A DNA stretch of 64,000 nt from a virus (lineage: Duplodnaviria > Caudoviricetes), in the IMG/VR virus record IMGVR_UViG_3300025735_000007, positions 32,001 through 96,000 of that record. One strand, 5' to 3'. The number at the start of each line of letters is the position of its first letter. Within the stretch, counting starts at the first letter, position 1. Made by a program: the position numbers and the translations under genes. The notes beneath the pieces are model-generated. The model searched no databases. It saw nothing but the letters and a program-made list of their open reading frames with translations, and was not told the origin of the DNA. Positions 676 through 63,672 of this stretch are shown one piece after another.

Positions 676-693
676 TAAGTCACGGGTTACTCA
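676..693. promoter_or_regulatory. 18-bp palindromic operator upstream of capsid
   Basis: TAAGTCA CGGG TTACTCA. Confidence 0.7.
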
Positions 694-721
694 CCCTATT
701 TCTTTTCGAAAGGAAACAGAC

Positions 722-1630
722 ATGCCATTGCTGCAAGCAGAAGCCGACAAGCTGAGTAACAACCAGCTTGTCGCAGGCGTTATCGAAGAAATCATCGAAA
801 AGGATGAGCTCTTCGCGTTGCTGCCGTTCGTCGGCATCAACGGCAAAGCCTACGTGTATGACCGCGAAAACACGCTGCCGGACGCCGAGTTCCTCTCGCC
901 GAACGACGAAGTGGAAGAAAGCGCGGGCACCTTCACGGAAGTCGTGTCCAAGCTGCGCATCCTCGCGGGCGACGTGGACGTCGACAAGTTCCTGCAGGAA
1001 ACCGAGTCCGACACGAACGACCAGCGCGCGACGCAGATCGGTCTGAAGGCCAAGGCTGTGGGCCGCAAGTTCAAGAAGACCATCGCGCAGGGCAATGCCG
1101 CCGTGAACGCGAAGGAATTCGACGGCCTGCCGCAGCTGGTGTCGGCCGCGCAGACGATCGACGCGGGCGGCGCAGCGAACGGCACGGCGCTCACGCTGAA
1201 CATGCTCGACGAGCTGGCCGACGCTGTGATCAACGGCGCCGACGCATTCGTCATGCGTGCGGGCACGATCCGCGCCTACCGCGCGCTGCTGTATGCAACC
1301 GGCGGCATCCAGCCGGCGATGGTCGAGATTCCGAATTTCGGCCAACCGGTGCTGGGCCACAACGGCATTCCGATTCTGCGTAACGACTGGCTCGGCGCGG
1401 ACGAGGACATGGGCACGAACAGCAACACCTGTTCGGTCTATGCCGTTCGCCTGAACGAGCTTGACGGTTTCCACGGCCTGTGGGGCGGCAAGGAAGCGGG
1501 CATTCGCGTGGAAGACATCGGCACGGTCCAGAACAAGGACGCCGACCGTATCCGCGTGAAGTGGTATTGCGGCTCGGCGCTGAAGTCCACGCGCTCGCTG
1601 GCACGTCTGCGCGGTATCACGAACGTCTAA
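722..1630 (+). CDS. Major capsid protein
   Basis: 302 aa, RBS, position after scaffold, EFDGL motif, strong terminator downstream. Confidence 0.85.
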   Translation: MPLLQAEADKLSNNQLVAGVIEEIIEKDELFALLPFVGINGKAYVYDRENTLPDAEFLSPNDEVEESAGTFTEVVSKLRILAGDVDVDKFLQETESDTNDQRATQIGLKAKAVGRKFKKTIAQGNAAVNAKEFDGLPQLVSAAQTIDAGGAANGTALTLNMLDELADAVINGADAFVMRAGTIRAYRALLYATGGIQPAMVEIPNFGQPVLGHNGIPILRNDWLGADEDMGTNSNTCSVYAVRLNELDGFHGLWGGKEAGIRVEDIGTVQNKDADRIRVKWYCGSALKSTRSLARLRGITNV

Positions 1631-1645
1631 GTTCGCGGCGATAGA

Positions 1646-1663
1646 TAAGTCACAAGTGACCTA
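1646..1663. promoter_or_regulatory. 18-bp palindromic operator
   Basis: TAAGTCA CAAG TGACCTA. Confidence 0.7.
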
Positions 1664-1676
1664 CGTCGCGTAAAAT

Positions 1677-4881: not shown

Positions 4882-4899
4882 TAAGTAACGAGTGACTGA
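4882..4899. promoter_or_regulatory. 18-bp palindromic operator upstream of tail tube
   Basis: TAAGTAA CGAG TGACTGA. Confidence 0.7.
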
Positions 4900-4937: not shown

Positions 4938-5459
4938 GTGGCAAGCGATACAAAGAACGTAAAGATGGGCGTTTGCCTGGTCTACTACAAGGGCATCGAT
5001 CTGGGCTACACCCAGGGCGGCGTCCAGGTGACGGTGACCACGCAGACCCATAAGACCAACGTCGACCAGTTCGGCAAGACGACCGTCAACGAACAGATCA
5101 TGTCGCGTGACGTGTCGGTCAAGGTGCCGCTGGCAGAAACGACGCTGGACAACCTGGTTGCAACGATGCCGGGCGCGTCGATCGTCGGCACGGGCACCGA
5201 CAAGAAGGCGATCGTGACCTCCGGCGTGGGCGTGTCCCTGCTGGACCTCGCGGGCGAGCTGCGCCTCCACCCGAAGGGCCGCGCGGCCGACGACTACAGC
5301 GAAGACTTCGTGATTCCGCTGGCAGCGACCTCGGGCGGTCTGTCGTTCGCTTACGAAGTCGAAAAGGAACGCATTTTCGACACGACCTTCACTGGCTACC
5401 CGGACCCGGTTACCGAAGAGCTGTTCGCGATCGGTGGCGCGCCCGTCGTCGCGCCGTAA
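4938..5459 (+). CDS. Major tail tube protein
   Basis: GTG start after AAGGAG; DLGYTQGGV motif; synteny. Confidence 0.75.
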   Translation: MASDTKNVKMGVCLVYYKGIDLGYTQGGVQVTVTTQTHKTNVDQFGKTTVNEQIMSRDVSVKVPLAETTLDNLVATMPGASIVGTGTDKKAIVTSGVGVSLLDLAGELRLHPKGRAADDYSEDFVIPLAATSGGLSFAYEVEKERIFDTTFTGYPDPVTEELFAIGGAPVVAP

Positions 5460-5470: not shown

Positions 5471-5488
5471 TAAGTAACAAGTGACTGA
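5471..5488. promoter_or_regulatory. 18-bp palindromic operator
   Basis: TAAGTAA CAAG TGACTGA. Confidence 0.7.
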
Positions 5489-11705: not shown

Positions 11706-12101
11706 ATGAATAAGTCACACATGACTTACACAGACTTGCTCGGCCGACCGTTTTCGATGGGCGGCCGCGGACCCGACGAATTCGATTGCTATGGGCTCGT
11801 CAAGTTTCTGATCGAACGCGACACGGGGCACTCAGTGCCGGATTACGTCACCCCGGCGGCAATGGGCGCGGTGCACGCGCTGATGATTGTCTCGCGCGAG
11901 TTCTGGACTCGGCTGCCGGGGCCGAAGGTGGGCTCGATGGTGTTCTTCAGGCTCGGGCGCCAAGTCTGCCACGTTGGCTATGTGATAAGTCACACGTTAT
12001 TTATTCATGCGTGGGAAAAATCAGGCGGCGTGACGATCGAACGGCTCGCCGCCTGGGAAAAACGGATTGATGGATTCTATGAATACACCGAAAAAGCGTA
12101 A
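11706..12101 (+). CDS. NlpC/P60 tail protein (lambda K-like)
   Basis: FDCYGLV, HVG and FIHA catalytic motifs; start may be 11721. Confidence 0.8.
   Translation: MNKSHMTYTDLLGRPFSMGGRGPDEFDCYGLVKFLIERDTGHSVPDYVTPAAMGAVHALMIVSREFWTRLPGPKVGSMVFFRLGRQVCHVGYVISHTLFIHAWEKSGGVTIERLAAWEKRIDGFYEYTEKA
11711..11728. promoter_or_regulatory. 18-bp palindromic operator (perfect arms)
   Basis: TAAGTCA CACA TGACTTA. Confidence 0.75.
11986..12003. promoter_or_regulatory. Intragenic 18-bp operator upstream of the J-like gene
   Basis: TAAGTCA CACG TTATTTA. Confidence 0.6.
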
Positions 12102-43483: not shown

Positions 43484-43490
43484 TTCAGGA

Positions 43491-48852: not shown

Positions 48853-48948
48853 TAAATATGACGTGAGAGACGGTAAGCATTATTGAACTGCCTCTCGCTC
48901 AAAACCTTTGACTTATCTCCAGAAAACTCTGAACAAGGAACTACAAAC

Positions 48949-49986: not shown

Positions 49987-50057
49987 TCGAAGCCTGATGT
50001 AACGACAGAAGCGGCGGGGCTTACACCCTGCCGCTTCCTCATTCAAGGGGTTCGATA

Positions 50058-50993
50058 GTGGCAAAGACAATCCTCATCGACGCGAACTCAGTCGGGCGCG
50101 CGTCGCACGCGGCGACGAAGCTGACCGTGGGTGCATTCCAGACGCAAGCCATCTTCGGCTTTCTGCGCACGGTGGGCGCGCTCTGTCGCGATTACCCGGG
50201 CTGGCAATTGCTCGTCCTGTGGGACGGCCGCGCAGACCATCGCTACGCGATCTATCCGCAATACAAGGAAAAGCGCAAGTCGGCGCTGGTCGATCCGGTG
50301 AAAGCCGCTGACCGTGCCGCCTACGAGGCACAGGTGCCCTTCATCAAAAAGGCGCTCGACATGCTGGGCGTGCCGCAGATGACGAACGCTGCGCTCGAGG
50401 CTGACGACCTCGCGGGCTACTTCGTGCCGCGTCTGTCTGCGAAGGACGATATGCTCCTCGTGACGGGCGACTCTGACTGGTGGCAGCTTATCAACGAGCG
50501 CTGCCGCTGGTTTGATCCGCGCAAGGCGGGCCTGCACGTCTGCCTCGACGACTTCTTCCAGAAGACTGGCTACTTCAGCCCGCGCGAATACATCGAAGGT
50601 AAGGCGCTGATCGGTGACTCGACCGACGACATTCCGCCGGCGGGCGGCATCGGGCCGAAGGGGGCGCCAGAGTTCATGGCGCAGTTCCGCTCGATGGAGA
50701 AGTTCCGGGCGATGTGCGACTCGGACGAGTTTGTGCCGAAGCTGAAAAAGCACATCGAGCTGTGGAAGGGCGAGTCGCGCCGCAACTGGGAGCGGAACAT
50801 GAAGCTGATGAACCTGCTCGACCAGCCGCACCCGGACCCGTCCAAGACCGTCATCACACACGGCACTCTGAACGAGGACACCTTTCGCGCGCTGTGTGAG
50901 CGCCTCGCTTTTCGGTCGATGCTGCGCGAGTGGGATCACTTTCTGATCCCGTTTCGCCAGCGCTGGGAGGCGCGGCTGAAGAAGGCCGCTTAG
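50058..50993 (+). CDS. 5'-3' exonuclease / T4 RNase H-like flap nuclease
   Basis: LIDANS, WDG, YK, EADDL, TGDSD, GDSTDDIP, GIGPKGA. Confidence 0.9.
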   Translation: MAKTILIDANSVGRASHAATKLTVGAFQTQAIFGFLRTVGALCRDYPGWQLLVLWDGRADHRYAIYPQYKEKRKSALVDPVKAADRAAYEAQVPFIKKALDMLGVPQMTNAALEADDLAGYFVPRLSAKDDMLLVTGDSDWWQLINERCRWFDPRKAGLHVCLDDFFQKTGYFSPREYIEGKALIGDSTDDIPPAGGIGPKGAPEFMAQFRSMEKFRAMCDSDEFVPKLKKHIELWKGESRRNWERNMKLMNLLDQPHPDPSKTVITHGTLNEDTFRALCERLAFRSMLREWDHFLIPFRQRWEARLKKAA

Positions 50994-51003
50994 GGAGAAC
51001 CGC

Positions 51004-51264
51004 ATGGACATTGTGATTGAAAAGAACGTGCCGCCGCCTGTAACCGGGCACGGCACATGGGGCAGCGTGCTGTCCCGCATGGAGGTCGGTGACTCGTTCG
51101 TGACCGACGACACTCCCGCCGCACGCGGTGCACTGCGCACCGCGGCAACGCGCGTGAAGATCAGCCTGTCGATCCGCAAGGAGCTGGATCAGCAGGGCAA
51201 CCCCGTAGAAGGTCGTATGCGCGTATGGCGCGCGGCCGACAAACAGAAGGAGCAACAAGAATGA
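51004..51264 (+). CDS. Small phage hypothetical protein
   Basis: IEKNVPPP...MEVGDSF...RVWR pattern; GGAG RBS. Confidence 0.6.
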   Translation: MDIVIEKNVPPPVTGHGTWGSVLSRMEVGDSFVTDDTPAARGALRTAATRVKISLSIRKELDQQGNPVEGRMRVWRAADKQKEQQE

Positions 51265-52316
51265 GCGTAGCAGACGATCTGGCGAAAGCCATCATGGGTG
51301 CTGTGGGCGGCAGCGACGAGGAGCTCGAGGTTCCCGGATACATCGACACCGGCTACGAGCCGCTGAACGATATTCTGTCGGGCGATCCGAAGAACGGCGG
51401 CATCGCGATGGGGCGCATCTTCGAAATCTTCGGCCCGTCGAGCTCCGGTAAGACGTGGCTCGCCACGCAGATCATGAAGCAGGCGCAGGTAATGGGCGGC
51501 GTCTCGCTGTTCATGGACCACGAGCTGACCTTCCAGCAGCCGTTTGCCGAGCGCAGCGGGCTCAAGACGGAGTTCCCGTGGTTCATCTACAAGCGCCCCG
51601 ATACGTGGGAAGCCTCGAATACGATGGCCCTGCAGGCCGCTGACGCGATTCGCAAGAGCAAGAAGCTCGATCCACTCGCGCCGATCGTGGTCGTATTCGA
51701 TTCGGTCGCCGCGATGATTCCGCAGTCGGTGTTCGAAAAGGGCATCACGGACTACAACATGAACGACACGACCGCGCTCGCGCGTGTGTCCTCGACCACG
51801 TTGAAGTCAATCAATCAGCAGTCGGCGAAGATGAACGTGACGATCATCTACCTGAACCAGATCCGCACGAAGCCGGGTGTGGTCTACGGTGACCCGACAA
51901 CGACCCCGGGCGGCTCGGCGTTCGAGTTCTACGCCACCGCTCGTCTCGCGCTCGGCAAGAAGTTCATCAAGTCCAAGGTCAACGGCAAGGATGAAATCGT
52001 TGGGCAGTTGATGGGGATCGAGACGAAGAAGAACAAGCTGGCACGTCCGCGCCAGGAAGTTGATCTTCGGCTGCAATTCCTCGACGACGGCATGACGACC
52101 GTGAACCTCACGCTCTCGCTGCTCGACCACGCGGTCGCCGTCGGTAAGCTGAAGAAGCTCTCCACGGGCCGCATCGAGTGGGTCAACGGTTCCAGCTATC
52201 CGCCGGGGCAGCTCGCCGACATGATCGACAAGGGCGGCCTGAAGCCGGTGCTGCTCAACGTCATCTATCCGAATCACTACCCAGCCGTCGCGGCGCCCGC
52301 AGCCGCCGCAGCCTAA
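51261..52316 (+). CDS. recA: RecA/UvsX recombinase
   Basis: GRIFEIFGPSSSGKT, DSVAA, NQIR, TPGG.A.EFYA, KNK. Confidence 0.92.
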   Translation: MSVADDLAKAIMGAVGGSDEELEVPGYIDTGYEPLNDILSGDPKNGGIAMGRIFEIFGPSSSGKTWLATQIMKQAQVMGGVSLFMDHELTFQQPFAERSGLKTEFPWFIYKRPDTWEASNTMALQAADAIRKSKKLDPLAPIVVVFDSVAAMIPQSVFEKGITDYNMNDTTALARVSSTTLKSINQQSAKMNVTIIYLNQIRTKPGVVYGDPTTTPGGSAFEFYATARLALGKKFIKSKVNGKDEIVGQLMGIETKKNKLARPRQEVDLRLQFLDDGMTTVNLTLSLLDHAVAVGKLKKLSTGRIEWVNGSSYPPGQLADMIDKGGLKPVLLNVIYPNHYPAVAAPAAAAA

Positions 52317-52364
52317 GCATTGCGCCTCCCTATACTCGGTAGCAGATAACCGGTAAGGGGAGGG

Positions 52365-52727
52365 GTGATGGAACAACATGTGATCGAATTTGCGCCGCCG
52401 GCCGAAGGGCTCGACGGCGTTTCTGTTTTCAACACCTTCCGCCTCGGTCGCGTGTGGCACGACCGGCTCAAGACGGGCGACGAGGTGTTCCTCATGTGGT
52501 CGAAGAAGATGCATGTCTTCGGGCGCGCGGTGGTCGGCGACGTGCACAAGGGCAAGCTCAGGGAGCTCGCCGAAGCGCATGCGCAGTTCAACCATAACCA
52601 GCGCGCGAACGCAGACACGGCGGGCGCCGCCGAGCGTCTGATCGCGAACATGATGAAGCGCTATGGGCCGCACATCTGTCATGAAAATAAGCTCACGACC
52701 TGCATTTACCTGAAGAGGTTCGAATGA
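52365..52727 (+). CDS. ASCH/PUA-like hypothetical protein
   Basis: TFR....GDEV.L....FG.A.V..V pattern. Confidence 0.4.
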   Translation: MMEQHVIEFAPPAEGLDGVSVFNTFRLGRVWHDRLKTGDEVFLMWSKKMHVFGRAVVGDVHKGKLRELAEAHAQFNHNQRANADTAGAAERLIANMMKRYGPHICHENKLTTCIYLKRFE

Positions 52728-52909
52728 CAACGCCATTTTCCACGGTCGCTGCTGAGGCGCCCTATGCGCGCATCACGCGTCAGACCATTTTGGGCATCCT
52801 CGAAGAGGAGATCGGCAGCGACGTGCCGCTCAAAGTCAAAGCGAGCGCCGCGCGCGAGATCATGAAGGTGATCGAGGAGCGCTACGCGGAGAAACCGCGA
52901 AATGGCTGA
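52724..52909 (+). CDS. Small hypothetical protein
   Basis: Coupled overlaps on both sides. Confidence 0.5.
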   Translation: MTTPFSTVAAEAPYARITRQTILGILEEEIGSDVPLKVKASAAREIMKVIEERYAEKPRNG

Positions 52910-53345
52910 GCTCAAGGTCAAGGACTGGAAGCCCTCGCCCTGTGGCAAATACCAGGCCGCCAAGGTGAAGAAGGGCTACAACCTCTACGGCGAGATCCGC
53001 AAATACCCGAACGGCATGACGATCTACTGGGCGTTCAGGAAGCCCGACGAGGTGTTCGTGGAGCTCGACGCATGGGCCGTCGACACGGAGACGATCTCCG
53101 TCATGAAGAGCCGCCGCGTCACGCACATCGGCATCCTCGTGTCCAACGGCGACACCTACCTCACGCGCATCGAGACGATGACCGACAAAGACAAGGGCGC
53201 CGTCGTCCTGAACTACAGCGCGCATCGCGGCGCACGCGGCAAGCTCGGCGCGCGTCAATGGTATCTGCCGCGCTCGCAGTTCGTGCAGCAACTCGCCCCG
53301 CCGGAGACGACCATCGAGCTGATGAAGATCCGGGGACGAAGATAA
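52902..53345 (+). CDS. Hypothetical protein
   Basis: Strong coding bias, GGAG RBS. Confidence 0.6.
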   Translation: MAELKVKDWKPSPCGKYQAAKVKKGYNLYGEIRKYPNGMTIYWAFRKPDEVFVELDAWAVDTETISVMKSRRVTHIGILVSNGDTYLTRIETMTDKDKGAVVLNYSAHRGARGKLGARQWYLPRSQFVQQLAPPETTIELMKIRGRR

Positions 53346-53398
53346 GTAAGCCATAACGTATCAATCAAACTATGTCATTCTTAATCAGGGAACGACCA

Positions 53399-53806
53399 AT
53401 GATTCTAACCAGCGCACTTCTCTGCCTGACGTTGAACATCTACCACGAAGCCCGCAGCGAGCCGATCCTGGGCCAATACGCCGTCGCAGCGGTGACCATG
53501 AACCGTGCGGGCGACGACCCGAAAAAGGTCTGCGACGTGGTAATGCAACCACGCCAATTCAGCTGGACGACCACCAAGCTCTTGCGCGACCGCGCCGGGT
53601 GGCGTCTGAAAGCGGCCGGCGTGCCAAAAGACGACTTCGCCTGGATGATCGCGAGCAAGATCGCCGAGAACACCCTGTCAGGCCACAAGATCGACCTCAC
53701 GCACGGCGCGACCTACTACCACGCCACTTGCGTGCACCCCGGCTGGCGCGAGAAGTTCGTTCACGCGCTGACGATCGGTGATCACATTTTCTATCGCGTT
53801 ACATAA
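53399..53806 (+). CDS. Cell wall hydrolase (SleB/Hydrolase_2)
   Basis: CL.LNIYHEARSE....AVA.V.MNR, QFSW, GATYYH, IGDHIFY. Confidence 0.9.
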   Translation: MILTSALLCLTLNIYHEARSEPILGQYAVAAVTMNRAGDDPKKVCDVVMQPRQFSWTTTKLLRDRAGWRLKAAGVPKDDFAWMIASKIAENTLSGHKIDLTHGATYYHATCVHPGWREKFVHALTIGDHIFYRVT

Positions 53807-53824
53807 GTCACCGATTACTATAAT
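53804..53824 (+). promoter_or_regulatory. Operator overlapping -10
   Basis: TAAGTCA CCGA TTACTAT-AAT. Confidence 0.7.
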
Positions 53825-53874
53825 TTACTGTGTAACGCAGACGTTACCCTTTCAACCACTCAGGAGTCACCTGC

Positions 53875-54417
53875 ATGAAATTCTCGACGTTCCTCTCCAA
53901 AGCCCTGTTTCACGCATTCGTGTGGGCCGAACTGCTATACGGCCTGCTTGCGCCCGCGCAGGGCCACGAGAACCTGGCCGTCTTCATCATCGGCATGTTC
54001 TCGGCGATTGGCTTCGTCGGAATGCTGCTCGACGGCGGGCTGAAGTCGATCGATGTGCCGGGCTCGTTCATCGGCCGCGCTTTGTTCCAGCTGTTCCAGT
54101 TCTCAAGCATGCTGCTGATCATCCTGGTCGTCGAGCACGGACACTTCGCCGCCGCTACCGCGCTGACGCTCACGACATTCCTGAAGGCCACCGCGTATCG
54201 CACGGTGCGCAATGCCGAGCGCGACATCAAACGCATGCTGAAGGAATTCGCCAATGCAAAGGCGCAGCCGCAACCGGCAGCCGATGCCCCGTTCGAAGAC
54301 CCGGCGCTTCAGACGAAAAGCACCACGCTCGAATTGAAGGCCCGCCCGGCTGCCGTGCGTGACCCCGCCTTCGACCATCCCTTCAGCGCAAATACCGCTG
54401 CCGCGACAAGCGCATAA
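53875..54417 (+). CDS. Membrane protein
   Basis: AGGAG RBS; three to four hydrophobic segments. Confidence 0.6.
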   Translation: MKFSTFLSKALFHAFVWAELLYGLLAPAQGHENLAVFIIGMFSAIGFVGMLLDGGLKSIDVPGSFIGRALFQLFQFSSMLLIILVVEHGHFAAATALTLTTFLKATAYRTVRNAERDIKRMLKEFANAKAQPQPAADAPFEDPALQTKSTTLELKARPAAVRDPAFDHPFSANTAAATSA

Positions 54418-54513
54418 GTCTCATCAGTCGTAGAAACAGGGGCCGCGTGCCCCTGTTCGCTGTCCAGAACATTGTAGTGAGAATGCCCACATGGGCTATC
54501 AGACGGGGGAATC

Positions 54514-55587
54514 ATGACGCCATACGGGCTTCTATCAGACACGCATTGCCATAACTGGTCCGCCTTCGCGCAGACCGATGACGACCTCATCAACACACGC
54601 CTCGTGATGATCCTCGACGAGATCGAGCGCTGTGCCATCGAGACTAAGAAAGCGGGCGGTAATACGGTGTATCACGGGGGCGACCTGTTCCACGTTCGCG
54701 GCTCGATCGAACCGAGCGTGCTGAACCCGACACGCGCCCGCTTCGAACATATCTACCGGCAGCATGGCGTGAAATTCCGCCTGCTGCCGGGCAATCACGA
54801 CCTTGAGCACAAGCACAGCAACGCCGTCGGCAACTCGGTCGAGGCGATGCGCGGTGAGTGGGTCGAAGTCAATCACGGTCCGACGTTCTACCCGGAGCAC
54901 CCGGTGACGGCCACGCTTGAAGGCGTGCAGATGGTCCCGTGGGTCGAGCGCGTGCAGGACTTCAAGGACAACATCGAAACTTGGGGACTTGACCGCGCGT
55001 GCCGCGCGAAGCGCGACCTGATCATTCACGCGCCGATCGACGGCGTGATCGAGGGGCTGCCCGACCACGGACTCACCGGCGAATGGCTCGCGGAGCTCGG
55101 CTTCAAGCGCGTGTTCAGCGGCCACTACCACAACCACAAGGAAATCATCCCGGGCAAGGTCTGGTCGATCGGCGCGCTCACGCACCAGACGTGGGGCGAC
55201 GTCGGCAGCAAGGCCGGTTTCCTGATCGTAAGCGACGCGGGCGTCAAGTGGCACAGCACGCATGCACCGCAGTTCGTGGACATCGACGCGTCGATGGACC
55301 CGTCCGAAGTCTCGTTGCGCTGCGATGGAAACTACGTGCGGGTCAAGGTCCAGAACGCGAAGCCCTCCGAAGTGAGCGCGATTCGCGACGGCCTGATGAA
55401 GCACGGCGCGCTCGGCGTGAATGTGAACGTCGTCAAGGTGCCGGTGACCGGCCGGCCGACAGTGAGCACCGTCAAAGCGGGCGCCTCGGTTGAAGTGCAA
55501 GTGACCGACTACATCAAGAGCGCGGGCTTCGAACATGCGGAGCTCGTCGCACAAGCAGCAATCAACGTTCTCGCGGAGGCGGTGTAA
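54514..55587 (+). CDS. SbcD/Mre11/gp47-like nuclease
   Basis: SDTH, GDLFH, GNHD, GHYH. Confidence 0.88.
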   Translation: MTPYGLLSDTHCHNWSAFAQTDDDLINTRLVMILDEIERCAIETKKAGGNTVYHGGDLFHVRGSIEPSVLNPTRARFEHIYRQHGVKFRLLPGNHDLEHKHSNAVGNSVEAMRGEWVEVNHGPTFYPEHPVTATLEGVQMVPWVERVQDFKDNIETWGLDRACRAKRDLIIHAPIDGVIEGLPDHGLTGEWLAELGFKRVFSGHYHNHKEIIPGKVWSIGALTHQTWGDVGSKAGFLIVSDAGVKWHSTHAPQFVDIDASMDPSEVSLRCDGNYVRVKVQNAKPSEVSAIRDGLMKHGALGVNVNVVKVPVTGRPTVSTVKAGASVEVQVTDYIKSAGFEHAELVAQAAINVLAEAV

Positions 55588-57548
55588 TGGACTTTCTCAA
55601 ACTGCGGGCGGTCAACTTCCTGACGCTCGGTGACTCGGGCGACCTCTCGCTCAAGGATCGCGGGCTCGTCCTAATTCAGGGCGTGAACAAGGACGACACA
55701 TCGACCGAATCGAACGGCGCAGGCAAGTCGTCTATCGCCGACGCGCTGTGCTGGGCGCTGTTCGGCACGACCGCGCGCGGCGAGTCGGGTGATCAGATCA
55801 TCAACGAAAAGGCGAAGAAGGGCACGTATGTGAGCCTGTCCCTGCAGGACGGCGAGACGATCTACGAGATCCGCCGCCATCGCAAGGACAAGCAGTTCAA
55901 GAACGCGACAACGATCACGCGCTGGAATCCGGCCGAGAGCTTCTTCAATGGCGCGGTGGGCGAGCGCATCGAGAAGGGCACCGAGAAGGAAGTGCAGCCG
56001 CAGATCAACGAAATCATCGGCTGCAACTACGACGTGTTCAAGTCGGCGATCTACGCCGGACAGGAGGACATGCCCGACCTGCCGAAGATGACCGACAAGC
56101 CGCTGAAGATGCTGATCGAGAAGGCGGCCGGCATCGAGCGGCTGGAGTCGGCCTACACGATCGCAAACCGCAAGCGCGACGAAGCCGTCGCCGCGGTCGA
56201 GAGTGCCACCAAGCAGATCGGCTCGCACGAGGCGCACATTGTGAACTGGAAGGTCTCGCTCTCGCAGGCTGAGACCAGCCACGCCGCGTTCGAAGCTGAG
56301 CGCCCCAACGTGCAGGCGGGCTGGACGGGCCGGGCCACGACGATCGCCGATGCGCTGCGGCAGAACTTCGAGACCTACAAGGGGCTCGGGGAGGCCGCGC
56401 TTGTCGCCGAGCGTGACCAGCTGCAAGCGATCCTCGCAGATCACAACAAGTTCACGGTGCAGCGCAACGAGCTGATCAAGACAGAGAGCGCGGCGGCAAC
56501 CGCGCACCGCGTGCGGCTCGCCGACTTTGAGCGCGTGCGCTCACACGCCGTCGCCGCCAGCGAAGCGATCAAGAACGCGCCGGCGGCGATGGCGAAGCCC
56601 TGCACCGAATGCGGCAAGCCGCACACCGCCGAAGAGCTCGACGAGTTTGTCGCACATCAGCGCAAGCGCGCGATGGAACTCGCGGTCGAGGCGGGCCAGA
56701 TCCAGTCCGAAGTGACGGAGCTCCAGAATGCGGCCGCCGCCGCTGCGAAGGCAGTCGAAGACTTCACCGCGACCATCCCTGATGTGTCGGCGACCAGCGC
56801 GCGCCTCGCGCAGGTGAATCAAACACTTCAGACGTGCCACCAGCTGAAGAACATGATCCAGCAGCAGAAGGCTGAGCACGACCGCGCGAAAGCCGAAGCC
56901 GAGAAGGCGCTCACCGTGGTCAACCCGCACCAGTCGGCGATCGATATGGGCCGTCAGCAGATCGCCAAGATTGAGGCTGAGATCGAGTCGATCAAGGCGG
57001 GTGCCGTCGAGCTCATGGAGGCGGTCGAGATCGCCGAGAGCGTGGTGAAGGTCTTCAGCCCCGGTGGCGTGCGCGCGCAGATCCTCGACACGGTGACGCC
57101 GTTCCTGAACGACCGCACCTCCGATTACCTGTCGTCCCTGTCGGACGGCAATATCAGCGCCGTCTGGTCGACGCTTTCGACCACCGCGAAGGGCGAGCTC
57201 CGGGAGAAGTTCAACATCGACGTCGAGAACGCCACGGGCGCGAAGACGTTCGGGGGTCTGTCGGGCGGGGAAAAGCGCAAGGTGCGGCTCGCGACGATGC
57301 TCGCGCTGCAGGACTTGGTTGCCTCGCGCGCGACGAAGCCGCTGTCGCTGTGGGTTGGCGACGAGATTGACGACGCGCTTGACGCCGCGGGCCTCGAGCG
57401 CCTCATGACGGTGCTCGAGCACAAGGCGCGTGAGAAGGGCACGGTGCTGATCATCAGCCACGAGTCGCTCTCCGACTGGTGCGACCAGATCGCCACGGTC
57501 ACGAAGCAGGGTGGTCAGTCCACCGTATCGGGGGCGCTGAGCGTATGA
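55587..57548 (+). CDS. SbcC/Rad50/gp46-like ATPase
   Basis: NGAGKSS, coiled coils, CTEC zinc hook, LSGGE, DE, ISH. Confidence 0.9.
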   Translation: MDFLKLRAVNFLTLGDSGDLSLKDRGLVLIQGVNKDDTSTESNGAGKSSIADALCWALFGTTARGESGDQIINEKAKKGTYVSLSLQDGETIYEIRRHRKDKQFKNATTITRWNPAESFFNGAVGERIEKGTEKEVQPQINEIIGCNYDVFKSAIYAGQEDMPDLPKMTDKPLKMLIEKAAGIERLESAYTIANRKRDEAVAAVESATKQIGSHEAHIVNWKVSLSQAETSHAAFEAERPNVQAGWTGRATTIADALRQNFETYKGLGEAALVAERDQLQAILADHNKFTVQRNELIKTESAAATAHRVRLADFERVRSHAVAASEAIKNAPAAMAKPCTECGKPHTAEELDEFVAHQRKRAMELAVEAGQIQSEVTELQNAAAAAAKAVEDFTATIPDVSATSARLAQVNQTLQTCHQLKNMIQQQKAEHDRAKAEAEKALTVVNPHQSAIDMGRQQIAKIEAEIESIKAGAVELMEAVEIAESVVKVFSPGGVRAQILDTVTPFLNDRTSDYLSSLSDGNISAVWSTLSTTAKGELREKFNIDVENATGAKTFGGLSGGEKRKVRLATMLALQDLVASRATKPLSLWVGDEIDDALDAAGLERLMTVLEHKAREKGTVLIISHESLSDWCDQIATVTKQGGQSTVSGALSV

Positions 57549-58420
57549 ACGCCAAAATTGCGGCGGGCTTGAGGAAGAGGCAGTTCTCAAGCCCGTTCGA
57601 GGATCACTTCGAGACGCCAAAGAGCACGATCTCAATGAGCGGGCGCCAGATGGGTAAGTCAACTCTTATGCGCGAACTGGCCGAACAGCAGGAGAGCCTT
57701 GCGAGAGCCATCGTCCGGTCATCGCCATCGAGCATTGGTGCGGCGGCAACCACTGCGACCGCCGCGCCGCCTTGGGCGAGTAAGAGCGCGGAAGAGATCG
57801 TCGCCGATATGAAGCGCTTCGCGGAACAGCTTGAAAAGTCGGCACCCGTAACCAGCGGGGCGATGATCGGCGATGGTCTCATCACTGCCGCGAAGATTGC
57901 CTCGTCGCTGCCCTGGCCCGGCACCAAGCCGAACATGTTCGACGACATTGTGGCGTCGGCGTCCGGGATCGTAAACCTCACTGAGGAACAACCCATGAAC
58001 ACCTCGAAGGAAGAAGCCGCGAAGCAGCTTGCCGCGCAGATCAACCAGAAGATCACGACGACCATCAGGCCCGGGCCATTCAAGCTCGCCGGCCCGGCGC
58101 AACTGACGATCAAGACGCGCCAGTCGCAATACAAGAAAAAGGCGTTTCTCGGCGACGAGACGATGAGCCTGACGAGTGTCTATGGAGGCAAGCGGGAAGT
58201 GATCGCTGTGTTCAAGAACGCGCTGCCGGTCGACTACTCCTACATCGAGATTCCGCTGGCCGACGCCACGACGCAGCTCGCCGGGTTCAAGGAATATCTA
58301 GCGTCGCTGGGTGTGGCGGACATCGACACGATCGTCGCCGGCATCGAGCAGCAGAAGACACAGACCGCGGCCGCCGAGCGCGACGAATTGCTCGCTGACC
58401 CGGAATTCGCAAGCTGGTAA
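57545..58420 (+). CDS. Hypothetical protein with mosaic N-terminal half; internal start likely at 57995
   Basis: ATGA overlap with sbcC; in-frame ATG 57995 preceded by GAGGA. Confidence 0.55.
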   Translation: MNAKIAAGLRKRQFSSPFEDHFETPKSTISMSGRQMGKSTLMRELAEQQESLARAIVRSSPSSIGAAATTATAAPPWASKSAEEIVADMKRFAEQLEKSAPVTSGAMIGDGLITAAKIASSLPWPGTKPNMFDDIVASASGIVNLTEEQPMNTSKEEAAKQLAAQINQKITTTIRPGPFKLAGPAQLTIKTRQSQYKKKAFLGDETMSLTSVYGGKREVIAVFKNALPVDYSYIEIPLADATTQLAGFKEYLASLGVADIDTIVAGIEQQKTQTAAAERDELLADPEFASW

Positions 58421-58434
58421 CCGAGGACAGGAAG

Positions 58435-59013
58435 ATGAAACTGAAGATTGTTGGTCTGGACCCATCGCTCACCCACACGGGCATCGCGATCATGGAATAC
58501 GACGTTGCGGCGGCGGCACTCGACGTGTCGGAACTGCGGTTGATCGTCACCGAAAACCAGAAGGGTAAGCAGGTCCGTCAGAACTCGGACGACCTGCGTC
58601 GCGCCCGCGAGGTCGTTGCGGGCATACACAGCGCGTGTAATGGTGCGCTCTTTGCCGTGTCTGAAGTCCCGATGGGCGCACAGAGCGCGCGGGCAGCGCT
58701 CGCGTTTGGCATGGTCATTGGGATTCTTGCGAACCTGCCTGTGCCGTTGATTCAGGTGAGCCCGCTCGAAGTGAAGATGGCGGCGGTCGGGCACCGTCAG
58801 GCGGCGAAGGAAGAAATGATCGCCTGGGCAGTCGCAAAGCATCCGAATGCGGGCTGGCTTCTACAGGACAAGAATGGCGCGCGCCATAAAAAAGGCGACC
58901 TGAAAGCCGACAACGAGCACTTGGCCGATGCAGTCGCGGTCGGCGAGGCCGGGATTCTGACCGACCAGTTCAAGCAGGCAGTGGCGATGCTCAGCTTCGC
59001 GAAGGCAGCCTGA
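58435..59013 (+). CDS. RuvC-like Holliday junction resolvase
   Basis: VGLDPSLTHTG, SE, P.EVK..A.G...A.K, ADA. Confidence 0.85.
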   Translation: MKLKIVGLDPSLTHTGIAIMEYDVAAAALDVSELRLIVTENQKGKQVRQNSDDLRRAREVVAGIHSACNGALFAVSEVPMGAQSARAALAFGMVIGILANLPVPLIQVSPLEVKMAAVGHRQAAKEEMIAWAVAKHPNAGWLLQDKNGARHKKGDLKADNEHLADAVAVGEAGILTDQFKQAVAMLSFAKAA

Positions 59014-59022: not shown

Positions 59023-60114
59023 CTATGGGTGGAAGTTGTCCGAGTCGTCAGTTGATAGGCCGAAAACTTCAGCTGCTGCATTCCAAAGACCGGCATCGAT
59101 GTCTAGGTGTTCCTCCAGCAACGCAGAGAAGAAAGCGTAGACGTCGTCGTCGGAGGCAATCAAAGCGATTTGACTGTTGTCGATTGCGGCCTCCAAAAGG
59201 CGTTCTGCTTCGGTTCTATTTATCGTCGGGCGCAACTGTTCGAGTTTTGCGATCGCCTCGTGGGTCGCTCGAAATGTGGGACTGGTCACTAAAGCCTCAA
59301 TTGCAGCTTCCTTCTCGGCGCTGGGCGCGGTAACTGGAGTGGCGGCAGCCGCGACTTCAAGCATCACACCGTGTGCCTGGACTGGCTCCGGCGGCGAAGC
59401 TGCGGGTTCTGCTGCCGGCTGGCCGCGTGCCTCTTCTGCATCCGCTAGGTATCGGTCTAAGAATGGCTTGACGCCTTTGTAGACGTGTAGCTTGCCATTT
59501 TTCGACTGCTTCCACTCAACTTCCAGCGACGGATGTGGTCGGCCCGTGTTAAGTGCCGAAACGTAGTCTCCATCGTTGCTGACGATATGGAGGTCGCCAT
59601 CCGGAACCCGGCTCAGCAGCACCTCCCAGTTATACTGATCTCCAACGCTGTCAGGTTTACCCGGCGGACTGCCTTTCTGCATCCGTTTCACGGCTCTAAC
59701 AAAAATCTGTTCATCGTCCAGATAGAGTTCAGCCTTATCGATGAGGTCTTGTAAAACAATGTCAGCGGGTAGAGCGTTATTGGAAGCGTCCGTCGCTGCC
59801 TGATTGATCATCGCGTTGCGTGCTCTCGTCGCGGCTTCGACCGCGGTTCTATACTCGCTGGCTTGAGGGTATTCCAGCATGTGCTGAGGAATCCCGCCGG
59901 GGTGACTTTCTTTTTTGAAATTGTCCGCTGCGGTCTTTAGCCTGGTTTCGCGATTCCGCCAGAGTTCGTCGAGAACCTGTTCAGGAAGATGAAGGCAAAT
60001 CCCATCTGCCGTGAGGTGCTCGCTGAGGTCCTTCAATTGACCTAGCGATTCCTTTGTTGAGGAATAAAATTCGAGGAAAACGTTGGTATCAACGAAGAGG
60101 TGTGTCTGCGCCAT
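59023..60114 (-). CDS. PIN-domain protein, antisense insertion
   Basis: LFVDTNVFL, QVLDE..RN, GDQYNW, SNDGDY; lower GC, opposite strand. Confidence 0.75.
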   Translation of the reverse strand: MAQTHLFVDTNVFLEFYSSTKESLGQLKDLSEHLTADGICLHLPEQVLDELWRNRETRLKTAADNFKKESHPGGIPQHMLEYPQASEYRTAVEAATRARNAMINQAATDASNNALPADIVLQDLIDKAELYLDDEQIFVRAVKRMQKGSPPGKPDSVGDQYNWEVLLSRVPDGDLHIVSNDGDYVSALNTGRPHPSLEVEWKQSKNGKLHVYKGVKPFLDRYLADAEEARGQPAAEPAASPPEPVQAHGVMLEVAAAATPVTAPSAEKEAAIEALVTSPTFRATHEAIAKLEQLRPTINRTEAERLLEAAIDNSQIALIASDDDVYAFFSALLEEHLDIDAGLWNAAAEVFGLSTDDSDNFHP

Positions 60115-60268: not shown

Positions 60269-60290
60269 TAAGTAATGTGTGACTTATAAT
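60269..60290 (+). promoter_or_regulatory. Operator overlapping -10 upstream of nrdA
   Basis: TAAGTAA TGTG TGACTTA-TAAT. Confidence 0.72.
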
Positions 60291-60320: not shown

Positions 60321-62597
60321 ATGAAACACATGAACGTAGTAAAGCGCGATGGCTCGACCGAGCCGATGAACGTCCCCAAGATCCAGAAGTGCATCGAATG
60401 GGCCTGCAAGGGCCTGAACGTTTCCCAGTCCGAGCTCGAGACGAGTGTCGGCGATATGCTGTATGACGGCATGTCGACCAAAGATATTCACCGCGCGACG
60501 ATCCTCGCCGCGGGCGGTCTGATCAGCCTCGCTGCGCCCGACTACACCTACGTCGCCGCGCGCCTGCTCAAGCAGCAGATTTTCAAGGAGTCGGTCGGCT
60601 CGATCGACTACCCGCACCTGGCCGACTACGTGAACAACGCGGTCGCGCTGGAAAAGCTGACCCCGGAACTGGTCGACGGCCGCTTCGATCTTGACGCGCT
60701 GAACGCGGAGATCGTCGCCGATCGCGACTACCAGTTCGACTACCTAGGCCTGCAAACGCTCGCCGATCGCTATTTCATCCGTGAGACGCCGGACGGCCGC
60801 ATCATGGAAATGCCGCAGCACTTCTTCATGCGCGTCGCGATGGGCCTCGCATTGCGCGAAGACAATGCGACGGCGCGCGCCATCGAGTTCTATACGGTGC
60901 TGTCGAAGTTTGAATTCATCAATTCGACGCCGACGCTGTTCAACTCCGCGACGCTGCACCAGCAGATGTCGTCCTGCTACGGCAATCAGGTGGGCGACCA
61001 GATCGTTGCCGAGCCGGGCGATCACCCCTACGACTCCATCTACGGCGCGATCACCGAGTGCGCGTTGCTGTCGAAATACGCGGGCGGCATCGGCACCGAC
61101 TGGACGCCGGTGCGTGGCAAGAACTCGCATATCAAGGGCACCAACGGGAAGTCCTCGGGCGTCGTCCCTTACCTGAAGGTCTACAACGACACCGCGGTGG
61201 CGGTAAATCAGGGCGGCAAGCGCAAGGGTTCGTTCGCGCCGTATCTGGAAACGTGGCACCCGGATCTGCCGGCCTTCCTGCAGCTGCGCAAAAACACCGG
61301 CGACGACCACGAGCGCTGCCACGACATCTTCCCGGCGAACTGGATTCCCGACCTGTTCATGGAGCGGGTGAAGGCGAAGGGCAAGTGGCATTTCTTCGAT
61401 CCGCACAGCTACCCGGAGCTGCACGAGCTCTACGGCGACGCCTTCCGCGCGCGCTACGAGGAGCTCGAAGCGGCCGGCGCATGCGTGGGCGAGGTCGAGG
61501 CGCTGACGCTGTGGCGCGACATGCTGACGGCGCTGTTTGAGACGGGCAACCCGTGGATGACGTGGAAGGACGAAATGAATCGTCGTAACCCGCAAAGCCA
61601 CGTCGGTGTCATCCACAACTCGAACCTGTGCACCGAGATCGCGCTGAACAACTCGGAAGACGAGACGTTCGTGTGCAACCTCGGCAGCGTAAACGTCGCC
61701 AAGGTTGACCCGTTCGCCAATCCGAAGCGCTTCAGCCAGGTCGTGAAGACCGGCATGCGCATGCTGGACAACGTGATCGACATCAACTTCTATCCCAGCG
61801 ACCGCGCGAAGACCGCCAATATGCGGCACCGCCCGGTGGGTCTGGGCCTGATGGGGCTGACCGACCTGATGGCGAAACAGGGCGTGGACTGGGAATCGCA
61901 AGCGTGCCTCGTCCTGAACGACGAGCTGCTCGAGGCGCTCTCTTACGAGGCGATCAGCGCGTCGGTGGATCTCTCGGCCGAGCGCGGCGCCTACAGCACG
62001 TTCGCCGGCTCGAAGTGGTCGCAGGGCATCCTGCCGATCGATACGGCTCGCAACCAGGACGTATCGGGCAGGTATGACTGGGACGAGCTCCGTCACCGCG
62101 TCGTCACCTACGGCATGCGTAACAGCAACACGATGGCAATCGCGCCGACCGCAACGATCAGCAACATCATCGGCGTGTCGCCGTGCGTCGAGCCGAACTT
62201 CGAGCGCTTTCACTCGAAGAAGAACATGGGTGGCAAGTTCCTCGTGATCGCCCCGTCGCTGCGCTACACGGACTCGATCAAGACGTGCTTCGAGATCGAC
62301 CCGATCTGGATCGTCGAGGCTGCGGCCCGCCGCCAGAAGTGGATCGACCAGGCGCAGTCTACGAATATCTGGATCAAGGCGGGCACGAAGGGCAAGGTGC
62401 TCTCGGACCTCTACATGCTCGCATGGGAGCGCGGCCTGAAGACGACCTACTACCTGCGCACCGAATCGGCGAAGGCGCAGGAAGAGGGCGCGGCCGCCGC
62501 AGCCGCCCCTGCGGCACAGGCTGCCGACGTCATGGAGCAGGACGTCTCGGCGGGTCTGTGCTCGATCACCAACCCCGACTGCACCAGTTGCCAGTAA
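60321..62597 (+). CDS. nrdA: Ribonucleotide reductase class I alpha subunit with ATP cone
   Basis: VVKRDG, TPTLFN, SSC, NLCTEI, VCNL, APTA, KTTYY, C-terminal CxxC. Confidence 0.95.
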   Translation: MKHMNVVKRDGSTEPMNVPKIQKCIEWACKGLNVSQSELETSVGDMLYDGMSTKDIHRATILAAGGLISLAAPDYTYVAARLLKQQIFKESVGSIDYPHLADYVNNAVALEKLTPELVDGRFDLDALNAEIVADRDYQFDYLGLQTLADRYFIRETPDGRIMEMPQHFFMRVAMGLALREDNATARAIEFYTVLSKFEFINSTPTLFNSATLHQQMSSCYGNQVGDQIVAEPGDHPYDSIYGAITECALLSKYAGGIGTDWTPVRGKNSHIKGTNGKSSGVVPYLKVYNDTAVAVNQGGKRKGSFAPYLETWHPDLPAFLQLRKNTGDDHERCHDIFPANWIPDLFMERVKAKGKWHFFDPHSYPELHELYGDAFRARYEELEAAGACVGEVEALTLWRDMLTALFETGNPWMTWKDEMNRRNPQSHVGVIHNSNLCTEIALNNSEDETFVCNLGSVNVAKVDPFANPKRFSQVVKTGMRMLDNVIDINFYPSDRAKTANMRHRPVGLGLMGLTDLMAKQGVDWESQACLVLNDELLEALSYEAISASVDLSAERGAYSTFAGSKWSQGILPIDTARNQDVSGRYDWDELRHRVVTYGMRNSNTMAIAPTATISNIIGVSPCVEPNFERFHSKKNMGGKFLVIAPSLRYTDSIKTCFEIDPIWIVEAAARRQKWIDQAQSTNIWIKAGTKGKVLSDLYMLAWERGLKTTYYLRTESAKAQEEGAAAAAAPAAQAADVMEQDVSAGLCSITNPDCTSCQ

Positions 62598-62650
62598 CCA
62601 ACCAAGAAAGGGCCGGGCAACCGGCCCTCATACATTCCCGAGGCATAGCA

Positions 62651-63643
62651 ATGAGTAGCAACTACGCACAGATCATCAACGACCGCCGGCTCGCATTTGG
62701 CCCGCGCAGCGACCTGATGGCGATCTCGCCCGCCAAGCACAAGTGGGCGCGCGACATGTGGAAGCAGATGAAGGCGAACAACTGGGATCTCCACGAGACC
62801 GATCTGACCGAAGACGGCCCGTGCTACCGCAACCGGCTCACGGACGGCGAGCGCTTCGCGTATGACAGCGCGCTGTCGTTCGCCTCGAACCTCGACGGCA
62901 TCCAGTTGCACAGCCTGTCGAACGTCGAGGCGTGCATCACGTCCCCCGAGGTCGAAATGTGCATCAAGCGCCAGATGTATGAGGAAGCGCTTCACGTCGA
63001 CGCCTACAGCGAAATGGTCGAAACCGTTTCCGCGGACCCGATGGCCGTCTATATGCGCTTCGAGCGCGACGGCATGCTCGCGGCGAAGAACGAGCACATC
63101 CTCGCGCAGTCGCGCATTCTGAAGGGCGAGCAGACGCCCGCGCAGTTCGCCCGCTCACTGGTCGCCAATATCGCGCTTGAGGGCATCTACTTCTACAGCG
63201 CGTTCCTCGTCTTTTACGCGCTCGCGCGCAACGGGAAGATGACGGGCTCGGCCGACAGCGTGAAGCTCATCCACCGCGACGAGCGCACACACCTGAAGCT
63301 GTTCAAGCAGATGCACCAGACGATGCGCCAGGAGCGCCCGGAGCTATACGACGCGCAGTTCTGGCGCGACGCTGAATTCCTGATTCGCGATGCGGTGGAG
63401 CTGGAAGGGAAGTGGGGCGGCTACATCGTCAGCAAGGGCATGTTGGGGCTGACCGCGCCGATCGTCACGGGCTTCCTGCAATCGACAGCGAACGAGCACG
63501 CGGTGGACATCGGCCTGCCCGAGCTGTTCCCCGGCGTGAAGAACCCGGTGCCGTGGTTCAAGCCGTTCTCCGAAGGCGAAGAGGCGAACTTCTTCGAAGC
63601 GAAGGTGGGCGACTACGCCGTCGGCACGCTCGATTGGGAGTAA
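62651..63643 (+). CDS. nrdB: Ribonucleotide reductase class Ia beta subunit
   Basis: D ligand, EEALHVDAY (radical Tyr), EGIYFY, RDERTH, NFFE. Confidence 0.92.
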   Translation: MSSNYAQIINDRRLAFGPRSDLMAISPAKHKWARDMWKQMKANNWDLHETDLTEDGPCYRNRLTDGERFAYDSALSFASNLDGIQLHSLSNVEACITSPEVEMCIKRQMYEEALHVDAYSEMVETVSADPMAVYMRFERDGMLAAKNEHILAQSRILKGEQTPAQFARSLVANIALEGIYFYSAFLVFYALARNGKMTGSADSVKLIHRDERTHLKLFKQMHQTMRQERPELYDAQFWRDAEFLIRDAVELEGKWGGYIVSKGMLGLTAPIVTGFLQSTANEHAVDIGLPELFPGVKNPVPWFKPFSEGEEANFFEAKVGDYAVGTLDWE

Positions 63644-63651
63644 CGCGCGAA

Positions 63652-63672
63652 TAAGTCACGGGTTACTATACT
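63652..63672 (+). promoter_or_regulatory. Operator overlapping -10
   Basis: TAAGTCA CGGG TTACTAT-ACT. Confidence 0.7.

Follow-up and report, generated by a model that had tools for sequence, protein, structure and literature searches.

Dispersed 18-bp elements at operon starts of a temperate Rhizobium-type phage and its relatives, probable operators of a phage-encoded XRE-family regulator

The stretch of DNA analysed here (the window; 64,000 nucleotides) corresponds to bases 32001-96000 of the 106,295-bp IMG/VR virus record IMGVR_UViG_3300025735_000007, a temperate phage of a Rhizobium-type host whose whole genome is labelled G000 in this study. The phage has a GC content of 61% and an estimated completeness of 96%, and nearly all of its genes lie on the plus strand; the gene boundaries used here rest on rough gene calls. 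Head, tail and fibre genes in the first part of the window are followed by genes for DnaB, primase and ligase, and then by a lower-GC island with genes for an SOS-response-associated peptidase (SRAP) and a tyrosine integrase. After the island come an XRE-family regulator gene, CobT/CobS genes, a sigma-70-family gene and the gene for DNA polymerase III alpha (PolIII alpha). The last part encodes a gp32-like single-stranded DNA-binding protein (SSB), RecA, SbcCD-like nucleases, a RuvC-like protein, a PIN protein and ribonucleotide reductase (RNR). Dispersed among these genes are copies of an 18-bp element, TAAGT(C/A)A-N4-T(G/T)ACTTA, the subject of this work. DNA-level matches among deposited phages were limited to the PolIII-alpha gene of the Rhizobium phages B1VFA, V1VFA-S, RHph_X66 and RHEph10, which are siphophages of 115-122 kb called phage-plasmid-like (PMC12509600). 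G001, G003, G004 and G005 denote relatives from IMG/VR; G004 has a GC content of 44%, yet has 40 proteins in common with this phage.

The preliminary description of the window, made from its letters alone, had claimed about 24 copies of a palindrome at a density beyond chance. The pattern given above was searched in the window, with 100 dinucleotide shuffles as the control, and produced 16 exact matches against 0.00 expected. Allowing up to two mismatches, 47 strand-matches were found at 24 distinct places against 1.06 expected; 23 of the 24 were taken as sites, and the match at 43481 was dismissed as chance. All 22 main copies of the preliminary description and its weak copy at 53343 were recovered, and shuffles contained 0-1. 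Its other weak copy (26941-26958, plus strand) did not hold up, as it has the right half-site only (CTGATAAGCATTGACTTA), directly after the -10-like TCTATACT. The whole genome carries 36 sites with up to two mismatches to TAAGTNA-N4-TNACTTA, where dinucleotide shuffles gave 0.2, and 31 of the 36 are intergenic, intergenic DNA being 9.7% of the genome (binomial p = 1e-26). No paper describing this motif turned up in literature searches.

The element consists of two 7-bp half-sites, TAAGT(C/A)A, with their centres 11 bp apart, and four central bases that differ among sites. For most relatives these central bases have a higher GC content than the genome as a whole; in RHEph10 they are AT-rich (11% GC). 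Mismatches summed over the 36 sites number 7 in the half-site upstream with respect to transcription and 38 in the downstream one, and the polarity of half-site quality has the same sign in G001, G005 and B1VFA. The dyad of the preliminary description is thus correct as to the two half-sites but not as to their symmetry, since the downstream half is degenerate. An A is preferred immediately before the site, and the single flipped copy (genome position 23006) faces a minus-strand gene of 576 aa. At the mirror positions 6 and 13 (C/A and G/T), complementary pairs numbered 11 against 16.5 expected, 14 against 16.5, 4 against 10.9 and 11 against 19.1 in four genomes, and at the mirror pairs 8/11 and 9/10 complementarity was at the expectation for independent halves. 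It was also observed in the four genomes that sites favour one C-type and one A-type half at positions 6 and 13, perfect self-complementarity seemingly being avoided.

The sites are concentrated at operon starts. Of the intergenic gaps of 61-300 bp, roughly half contain a site, compared with one of 75 gaps of 20 bp or less, and the genes preceded by sites include those for capsid, tail, fibre, replication, CobS/sigma/PolIII, SSB, cell-wall hydrolase and RNR. Together with the positions kept at orthologues in relatives (below), this bears out the earlier claim that the element marks operon starts in all modules. At six sites the TAA of the element doubles as the stop codon of the upstream gene. 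The sites also keep a register with promoter-like sequences: TANNNT hexamers are enriched at few offsets only from the site start, namely +12, +15 and +16 in G000, G001 and G005, and -5 and +16 in B1VFA. Eight copies, termed class II, have the form TAAGTMAC-N3-TTACTATAYT, in which the right half is fused with a -10 box, and two perfect palindromes terminate in ...ACTTATAAT, overlapping a -10 box. About 8-12 further copies begin 1-5 nt 3′ of a (G)CTATA(C/A)T-type box and would therefore cover the transcription start. The remaining third or so of the sites lie in gaps, 1-16 nt past a stop codon, with no -10 box nearby, and may be regarded as candidate elongation roadblocks. A consensus scan of 39000-58999 returned three sigma-70-like sites, each overlapping an operator (the term used for the sites below, in keeping with the interpretation proposed).

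The individual sites of the structural part of the window are as follows, on the plus strand unless stated to be without strand. The site at 676-693 lies 28 nt 5′ of the major-capsid-like gene (722-1630) and is kept at the orthologue in G001, G003, G005 and B1VFA, and that at 1646-1663 lies between head genes. The operator at 4882-4899 is just 3′ of a sigma-70-like promoter, TTGACT-N18-TATAGT, before a tail gene (4938-5459), and the one at 5471-5488, in a short intergenic gap with no -10 box nearby, is a candidate roadblock. A perfect palindrome in the tail module (11711-11728, without strand) comes after TAAAAT, and the operator at 11986-12003 comes after GCTATGTGA, 75 nt 5′ of a fibre gene of 1857 aa. 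Another perfect palindrome (18285-18302, without strand), the last two bases of which start a TATAAT -10 box, precedes a fibre gene of 1432 aa. The sites at 23674-23691 and 24111-24128 begin 1 nt and 2 nt past the upstream stop codon, respectively.

Replication and nucleotide metabolism genes are preceded in the same manner. The class II site at 27685-27702, with its right half fused to a -10 box, lies before the Hfq-like and DnaB genes; the TAA of the class II site at 30912-30929 is the stop codon of the primase-like gene, and the operator at 32130-32147 overlaps the start codon (32140) of the ligase-like gene. Two tandem sites stand before CobS, at 42170-42187 and at 42197-42214, the latter being a class II site inside the promoter-like TTGACG-N18-TACTAT that precedes the CobS-sigma-PolIII operon; the site before CobS is kept in G003, G005, B1VFA, G004 and RHEph10. 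The site at 43021-43038, within the CobS gene, is one of the few intragenic copies. Further class II sites are found before the gp32-like SSB gene (48832-48849), at 53804-53821, where TATAAT overlaps the right half, and 3′ of the RNR small-subunit gene (63652-63669). The weak operator at 53343-53360, whose TAA is the upstream stop codon, precedes the cell-wall hydrolase gene, and a perfect palindrome (60269-60286, without strand) after a hairpin and T-run, whose end forms TATAAT, precedes the RNR large-subunit gene.

In B1VFA, the early-region operons have the arrangement GCRCTCC-N12-GCGCTATAA, palindrome, Shine-Dalgarno sequence and ATG, and the structural operons (late promoters) have TTGCAA-N17-TACAAT, the 17-bp spacer of which is filled by the palindrome. 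The sequence GCRCTCC-N12-GCGCTATAA was noticed as a second signal directly 5′ of the palindrome at about a dozen early-region operons of B1VFA (for example 486, 4535, 13374, 20052, 104746, 114793, 118932), and may be a promoter class read by the phage sigma factor. Many sites of G005 follow TTT(G/T)CC-N4-5-AAARA (for example 26364, 28887, 29594, 30376, 35926, 38133), and a weaker trend of T-rich and then A-rich sequence ahead of sites was seen in this phage as well.

The preliminary description had named the XRE-family protein encoded beside the integrase gene as the best candidate for a binder of the element, and the comparisons made here point to the same protein. The gene (38870-39325, minus strand) encodes 151 aa, assigned to a PHROG of transcriptional regulators and matching Pfam HTH_19 and HTH_37, both below the cut-off. 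In its AlphaFold2 (AF2) model (pLDDT 88.7), a five-helix helix-turn-helix (HTH) domain is followed by a helical C-terminal part. The N-terminal domain matched 2cro, 2or1, 2r1j and 3jxb (434 Cro/repressor and P22 c2) in Foldseek, with a root-mean-square deviation of 1.6-2.0 Å over about 62 residues, and the model also matched DdrO and Stl. A PDB profile search returned the HTH of the pLS20 Rco repressor (E = 3e-5) as the nearest solved sequence relative, along with a LexA-type HTH, and returned no mycobacteriophage repressor. All seven genomes that were compared in full encode the XRE protein, which is the sole protein of a classical operator-binding type among the proteins common to all motif-bearing genomes. 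Among 83 homologues, GY.kPNIITMFKQG.TK.P is kept at ≥80%, and the recognition helix is near-invariant. IMG/VR contigs fetched via the XRE protein (41-64% GC), all members of the same phage family, carried 3-13 sites within ±10 kb of it in 20 of 20 cases.

Sites also cluster at the XRE gene itself. The 700 bp upstream of it hold 2.07 sites per kb versus 0.38 per kb elsewhere, a 5.4-fold difference (p = 9e-13). Three sites lie in the XRE control region of this phage and the other ~33 genome-wide. Two of the three are weak operators in the XRE leader, without strand: one at 39356-39373, 30 nt before the XRE start codon on the minus strand, and one at 39391-39408, 3′ of a minus-strand -10 box (39428-39433). 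The third (39540-39557, plus strand) is placed on the early rightward promoter TTCGAT-N18-TATAAT (39509-39538) and also falls within the spacer of a promoter-like sequence on the minus strand. XRE is divergent from the early operon in four of five lineages. The first gene of the early operon in this phage is an open reading frame (ORF) of 79 aa (39599-39838, plus strand), which has a homologue in G001 and has an HPE(F/H)GN(L/I) stretch in common with RHEph10 gp042. It produced no Pfam or PHROG match, and we can only guess that it is a Cro- or Coi-like partner of the repressor.

Variants of the recognition helix go with variants of the site, as the preliminary description had suggested checking. 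Helices with FKQ or FRQ pair with C at half-site position 8, and the MIKTG and MLKLG helices pair with G/T at that position. The helix of RHEph10, SNMVTMIKKG, pairs with A at position 8 and with changes at positions 2 and 4, its sites having the form TCAGTMAAT|ATTKAYTKA. The distant G004 belongs to the helix/operator class of G000 and not to that of the closer G005. As all of these genomes are kin, the covariation is suggestive, not decisive.

The element is conserved through the phage family and is rare in bacterial chromosomes. With up to two mismatches, 33 sites were found in G001, 35 in G003, 40 in G005, 39 in B1VFA and 43 in G004, against a shuffle expectation of 0.15-0.6 (7.8 for the AT-rich G004). 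By the same pattern B1VFA, RHph_X66 and V1VFA-S have about 30 sites each, and the pattern is abundant in five IMG/VR relatives. Thirty-seven of the 39 B1VFA sites are near-perfect palindromes (≤1 mismatch), and RHEph10 carries about 40 copies of the variant T(C/A)A(G/A)T(C/A)AAT|ATTKAYTKA. Orthologues of site-bearing G000 genes have a site upstream in 23 of 29, 26 of 29, 11 of 16, 6 of 13 and 6 of 13 cases in relatives. Across 185,579 bacterial and archaeal genomes, by comparison, the perfect palindrome TAAGTCACNNGTGACTTA was found at 38 loci only. Five whole genomes of Rhizobium, Paraburkholderia, Cupriavidus and Burkholderia (35 Mb in total, 4-9 Mb per genome), each picked for one perfect site, contained 1-2 sites each, the comparison figure for the phage being 20+7 strand matches in 0.1 Mb; the motif is about 1000-fold rarer in bacterial chromosomes. 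Host chromosomes and shuffles, the controls proposed at the outset, were thus nearly devoid of the site, and a host-factor site or common host motif was rejected on the basis of these scans. The few bacterial loci with multiple sites are elements of the phage family in assemblies of Vibrio and Photobacterium and in a metagenome-assembled genome (MAG) of Piscirickettsiaceae.

Two further occurrences were noted outside the family. An extended perfect palindrome, (G/A)ATAAGTCACNNGTGACTTAT(C/T), is present as single copies in unrelated bacteria, 16 of the 38 loci being in Burkholderiales; no phage homologues or XRE homologue were found near the single-copy bacterial palindromes, which may be operators of an unrelated host regulator. 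IMGVR_UViG_3300046168_000060 (165.8 kb), an apparently unrelated viral contig, contains ten exact class II matches about 1233 bp apart in a long tandem repeat array.

Taken together, the 18-bp element is probably the operator of one phage-encoded dimeric HTH regulator that silences the lytic programme, and most probably this regulator is the XRE protein. The 7-bp half-sites 11 bp apart, the variable centre and the lack of hairpin covariation would fit a dimeric HTH protein, in agreement with the earlier proposal that one dimeric protein acts on the whole genome; these arguments come from sequence and structure prediction. In the proposed mechanism, two recognition helices (consensus PNIITMFKQG) would read the two TAAGT(C/A)A half-sites, the central bases probably being uncontacted. 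About a third of the roughly 36 operators over 106 kb overlap a -10 box, about a third lie just 3′ of one and the rest are in very short gaps. As operators overlie -10 boxes or transcription starts, occupied operators would block binding of RNA polymerase at most operon starts, that is, they would repress rather than activate, and promoter-less sites may also act as elongation roadblocks. The regulator would thereby keep the whole lytic programme silent in the prophage state and would repress its own gene through the two weaker leader operators. This phage would be integrated, as it has an integrase, and B1VFA-type relatives, which carry repC and parA (PMC12509600), would persist as RepC/ParA plasmid prophages. 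The integrase beside XRE, repC/parA in relatives and the family elements in bacterial assemblies, together with the divergent XRE gene, fit a prophage master repressor; the operator-free island described below is likewise in keeping with a temperate lifestyle.

Several points weigh against this interpretation. All motif-bearing genomes belong to one phage family, so that the co-occurrence of XRE does not exclude other family-wide proteins, namely the sigma factor, the pair of ParB_N proteins and further conserved proteins without assigned function, and the covariation rests on about three helix classes that are not phylogenetically independent. The link between half-site asymmetry and direction is explained only in part by the -10 overlap, and a clear -35 box is absent at several class II sites. 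As to the route of induction, no S24 peptidase domain was matched in XRE by Pfam, the C-terminal part being all-helical. The XRE gene of the B1VFA clade lies in the early operon and has the same direction. Furthermore, immunity repressors normally diversify, and here the helix and operator are kept across phages with about 40% protein identity and different host bacterial classes.

The last two points indicate that XRE could be a core regulator of the lytic cycle, with the binder and sites as proposed but the protein timing or shutting off transcription in each infection. Such conservation, extending over phages of alpha- and gammaproteobacteria with 41-64% GC, would be atypical for immunity systems, and the cultured relatives were isolated as plaque formers for which lysogeny is only suggested (PMC12509600). 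This alternative nevertheless appears unlikely, in view of the integrase adjoining the XRE gene, the repC/parA genes of relatives and the family elements resident in bacterial genome assemblies. The divergent orientation to the early operon in most lineages, with weak leader operators, resembles a classical switch, and early, middle-type and late-type promoters all carry a site.

The main rival to XRE as the reader of the element is the phage sigma factor. The gene at 43497-44144 (plus strand) was assigned to the sigma-70 family by Pfam Sigma70_r2 (23.2 bits) and PHROG (sigma factor), and is syntenic with annotated sigma genes of RHEph10 and B1VFA; although divergent in sequence, it keeps its syntenic position throughout the family. 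On this view the element, or just its class II form, could be a phage-specific promoter read by RNA polymerase with this factor, and thus a positive signal. The motif orientation tracks gene direction, including the one flipped site, and the eight class II copies form a 22-bp asymmetric consensus that ends in a -10-like sequence without consistent -35 boxes, as such a promoter might. However, sigma promoters are not dyads, whereas nearly all B1VFA sites are near-perfect palindromes, and the half-site centres are 11 bp apart rather than the ~23 bp between -35 and -10. The sites stand in at least two registers to -10 boxes, some are only 6-18 nt from the start codon, leaving no room for a transcription start, nothing is conserved 3′ of the palindrome, and the motif also occurs 5′ of the operon of the sigma gene itself. 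On balance we consider a sigma-read promoter quite unlikely. Two related candidates were rejected. The motif itself is not a sigma-70 promoter, because neither half fits -10 or -35 at a workable spacing and it adjoins or sits inside real-looking promoters in two registers. Class II recalls the ...ACTATA of promoters for T7-like single-subunit polymerases; no such polymerase was found among the large ORFs checked with Pfam and the RHEph10/B1VFA annotation, and class II is a subset of the dyad family.

Another family-wide phage protein could be the binder instead, either a conserved protein without assigned function or a ParB_N protein in the manner of KorB, the ParB homologue that exerts repression on plasmid RK2 from 12 scattered palindromes. 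Two proteins with a ParB N-terminal domain and several unannotated proteins occur in every motif-bearing genome, and a site between a helicase-like gene and the first ParB-like gene is kept in all six relatives. Pfam, however, found only ParB_N in both proteins and no ParB/KorB HTH; the sites cluster at the XRE gene and not at the ParB genes, and the variants of the operator track those of the XRE helix. A binder other than XRE is accordingly held to be improbable.

A role of the palindrome through nucleic-acid structure (a hairpin at the RNA 5′ end, a processing site or a cruciform in the DNA), or as a site that a host protein recognises or that is modified in the DNA, is very improbable: in B1VFA early operons it would form the first 18 nt of the mRNA, and a conserved module with confirmed ParB_N and ABC ATPase domains might modify DNA, but complementarity between the halves is unselected and even below expectation, the same host factor would be needed in bacteria from Rhizobium to Vibrio, although the site is nearly absent from host chromosomes, and a modification target needs neither intergenic placement nor a promoter register. 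A hairpin in RNA or DNA was rejected because the mirror positions do not covary and because many copies are upstream of the -10 box that they overlap and would not be transcribed from it.

Regulation of this kind has been described in a few unrelated systems, and the preliminary description had likened the element to the operators of P1 C1 and to the stoperators of mycobacteriophage L5. Gp71 of L5 (Cluster A) binds more than 20 asymmetric 13-bp operators/stoperators as a monomer and in an orientation-dependent manner (PMC9283540, PMC6550527). Common to L5 and this phage are dozens of copies of one short site genome-wide, at promoters and in short intergenic gaps, a site polarity that follows the direction of transcription (here seen as half-site quality in four genomes), one proposed repressor for early and late genes, and shifted site variants across a large phage group. 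The L5 site is an asymmetric 13-14 bp bound by a monomer with two DNA-binding domains, unlike the 18-bp dyad here and its single-HTH XRE protein, an expected dimer, and the elongation block is demonstrated in L5 and only guessed here.

The C1 repressor of P1 acts at 22 dispersed operators with the 17-bp asymmetric sequence ATTGCTCTAATAAATTT (PMC8546580). P1 resembles the present system in having one repressor and some 20 or more operators over a genome of about 100 kb, and in a plasmid-prophage life, which is probable for the relatives here; coi, beside the P1 repressor promoter, has a possible counterpart in the 79-aa ORF. The site differs from that of P1 in sequence and symmetry, and C1, from its description, is not of the XRE type. 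The likeness to P1 C1 and L5 therefore applies to the mode of working and not to family membership, given the site symmetry and the protein type.

The repressor of phiC31 is a further parallel, its conserved inverted repeats (CIRs) being a ~17-bp palindromic operator found at many loci near promoters and bound by the product of one repressor gene. The host of phiC31 belongs to another phylum, and its repressor is unrelated and made as nested isoforms. Nearest in protein fold and operator geometry are P22 c2 and 434 repressor/Cro, whose HTH domain likewise has five helices and this fold. The P22 operator, of ~18 bp, has outer half-sites and uncontacted central bases, and the geometry of the element here would fit the dimer-bound palindromes of 14-18 bp of lambdoid CI/Cro repressors. 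In contrast to the two or three operator clusters at the immunity region of 434 and P22, about 36 operators are dispersed here, and, unlike lambdoid CI, the XRE protein has no detected LexA-like/S24 cleavage domain, its C-terminal domain being all-helical.

Rco (PDB 8bny), from the Bacillus plasmid pLS20, controls a mobile element as its master repressor; the promoter pair involved is divergent and self-regulated, and the oligomerising C-terminal domain of Rco loops DNA (PMC9986798). The XRE protein is related to it by the HTH and by the master repressor role proposed here; however, the direct repeats to which Rco binds are clustered at a single locus, and its tetramerisation domain is unmatched, as only residues 9-76 align. 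The KorB/KorA regulon of RK2 likewise comprises short dispersed palindromes at or near many promoters for coordinate repression. KorB has an HTH of its own, and the ParB_N proteins here, which show none by Pfam, are not the favoured binder. Promoters of alternative sigma factors are asymmetric, with -35 and -10 boxes 16-18 bp apart at a fixed distance to the start, unlike a dyad with 11-bp half spacing and variable registers. Our verdict is that of a global repressor with dispersed operators, working like P1 C1, the L5 stoperators and the phiC31 CIRs but belonging to none of those families.

A bolder reading, which we put forward with reserve as doubtful though conceivable, is that the XRE-operator pair is the deeply conserved core of the transcription plan of the family. 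Nearly all promoters, in phages of hosts from Rhizobium to Vibrio, would then be gated by one protein with the same recognition helix, distant members would silence each other, and polar gap sites with one strong half would stop polymerase in a direction-dependent manner, like L5 stoperators but through a dimeric HTH. The C-terminal domain might bridge sites and fold the genome.

The operator-free stretch 32148-39355 (7.2 kb) covers the whole integrase/SRAP accessory island. Its tyrosine integrase gene (37546-38811, plus strand; Pfam Phage_integrase, Arm-DNA-bind_3 and Phage_int_M) is the neighbour of the XRE gene. The SRAP gene (36378-37085, minus strand) adjoins the integrase gene inside this lower-GC island. 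The gene at 59023-60114 (minus strand) for a PIN_12-domain protein has a poor codon-usage score, no homologue in any relative and no operator of its own, and was probably acquired recently, as an accessory or defence gene. Directly 5′ of the DnaB-like gene, a 152-aa protein (27755-28213) matched the Hfq (Sm) domain with 26.9 bits against a Pfam cut-off of 27. The N-terminus of the CobS-like AAA protein (42272-42460), ahead of the AAA_5/CbbQ_C core, had a weak match to a Ros/MucR-type zinc finger (E = 3.5e-4); a CobS-type ATPase would not usually be expected to carry a DNA-binding module.

The kind of control proposed here is already known, and no description of it was found for this phage family. 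Few systems (P1, L5-type mycobacteriophages and phiC31) are well documented in which one repressor acts at dozens of dispersed operators, and to these the present work would add a large and hardly studied family, the 103-122-kb siphophages and phage-plasmids of proteobacteria, including cultured Rhizobium phages. Given how unusually well the site is kept from hosts of 41% GC to hosts of 64% GC, one may ask whether these phages are mutually immune and whether the protein is more than an immunity repressor. For the family as a whole, the sites yield a map of probable promoters and operon starts, a specific candidate protein-DNA pair, and a natural series of helix/operator variants through which the evolution of immunity specificity may be followed.

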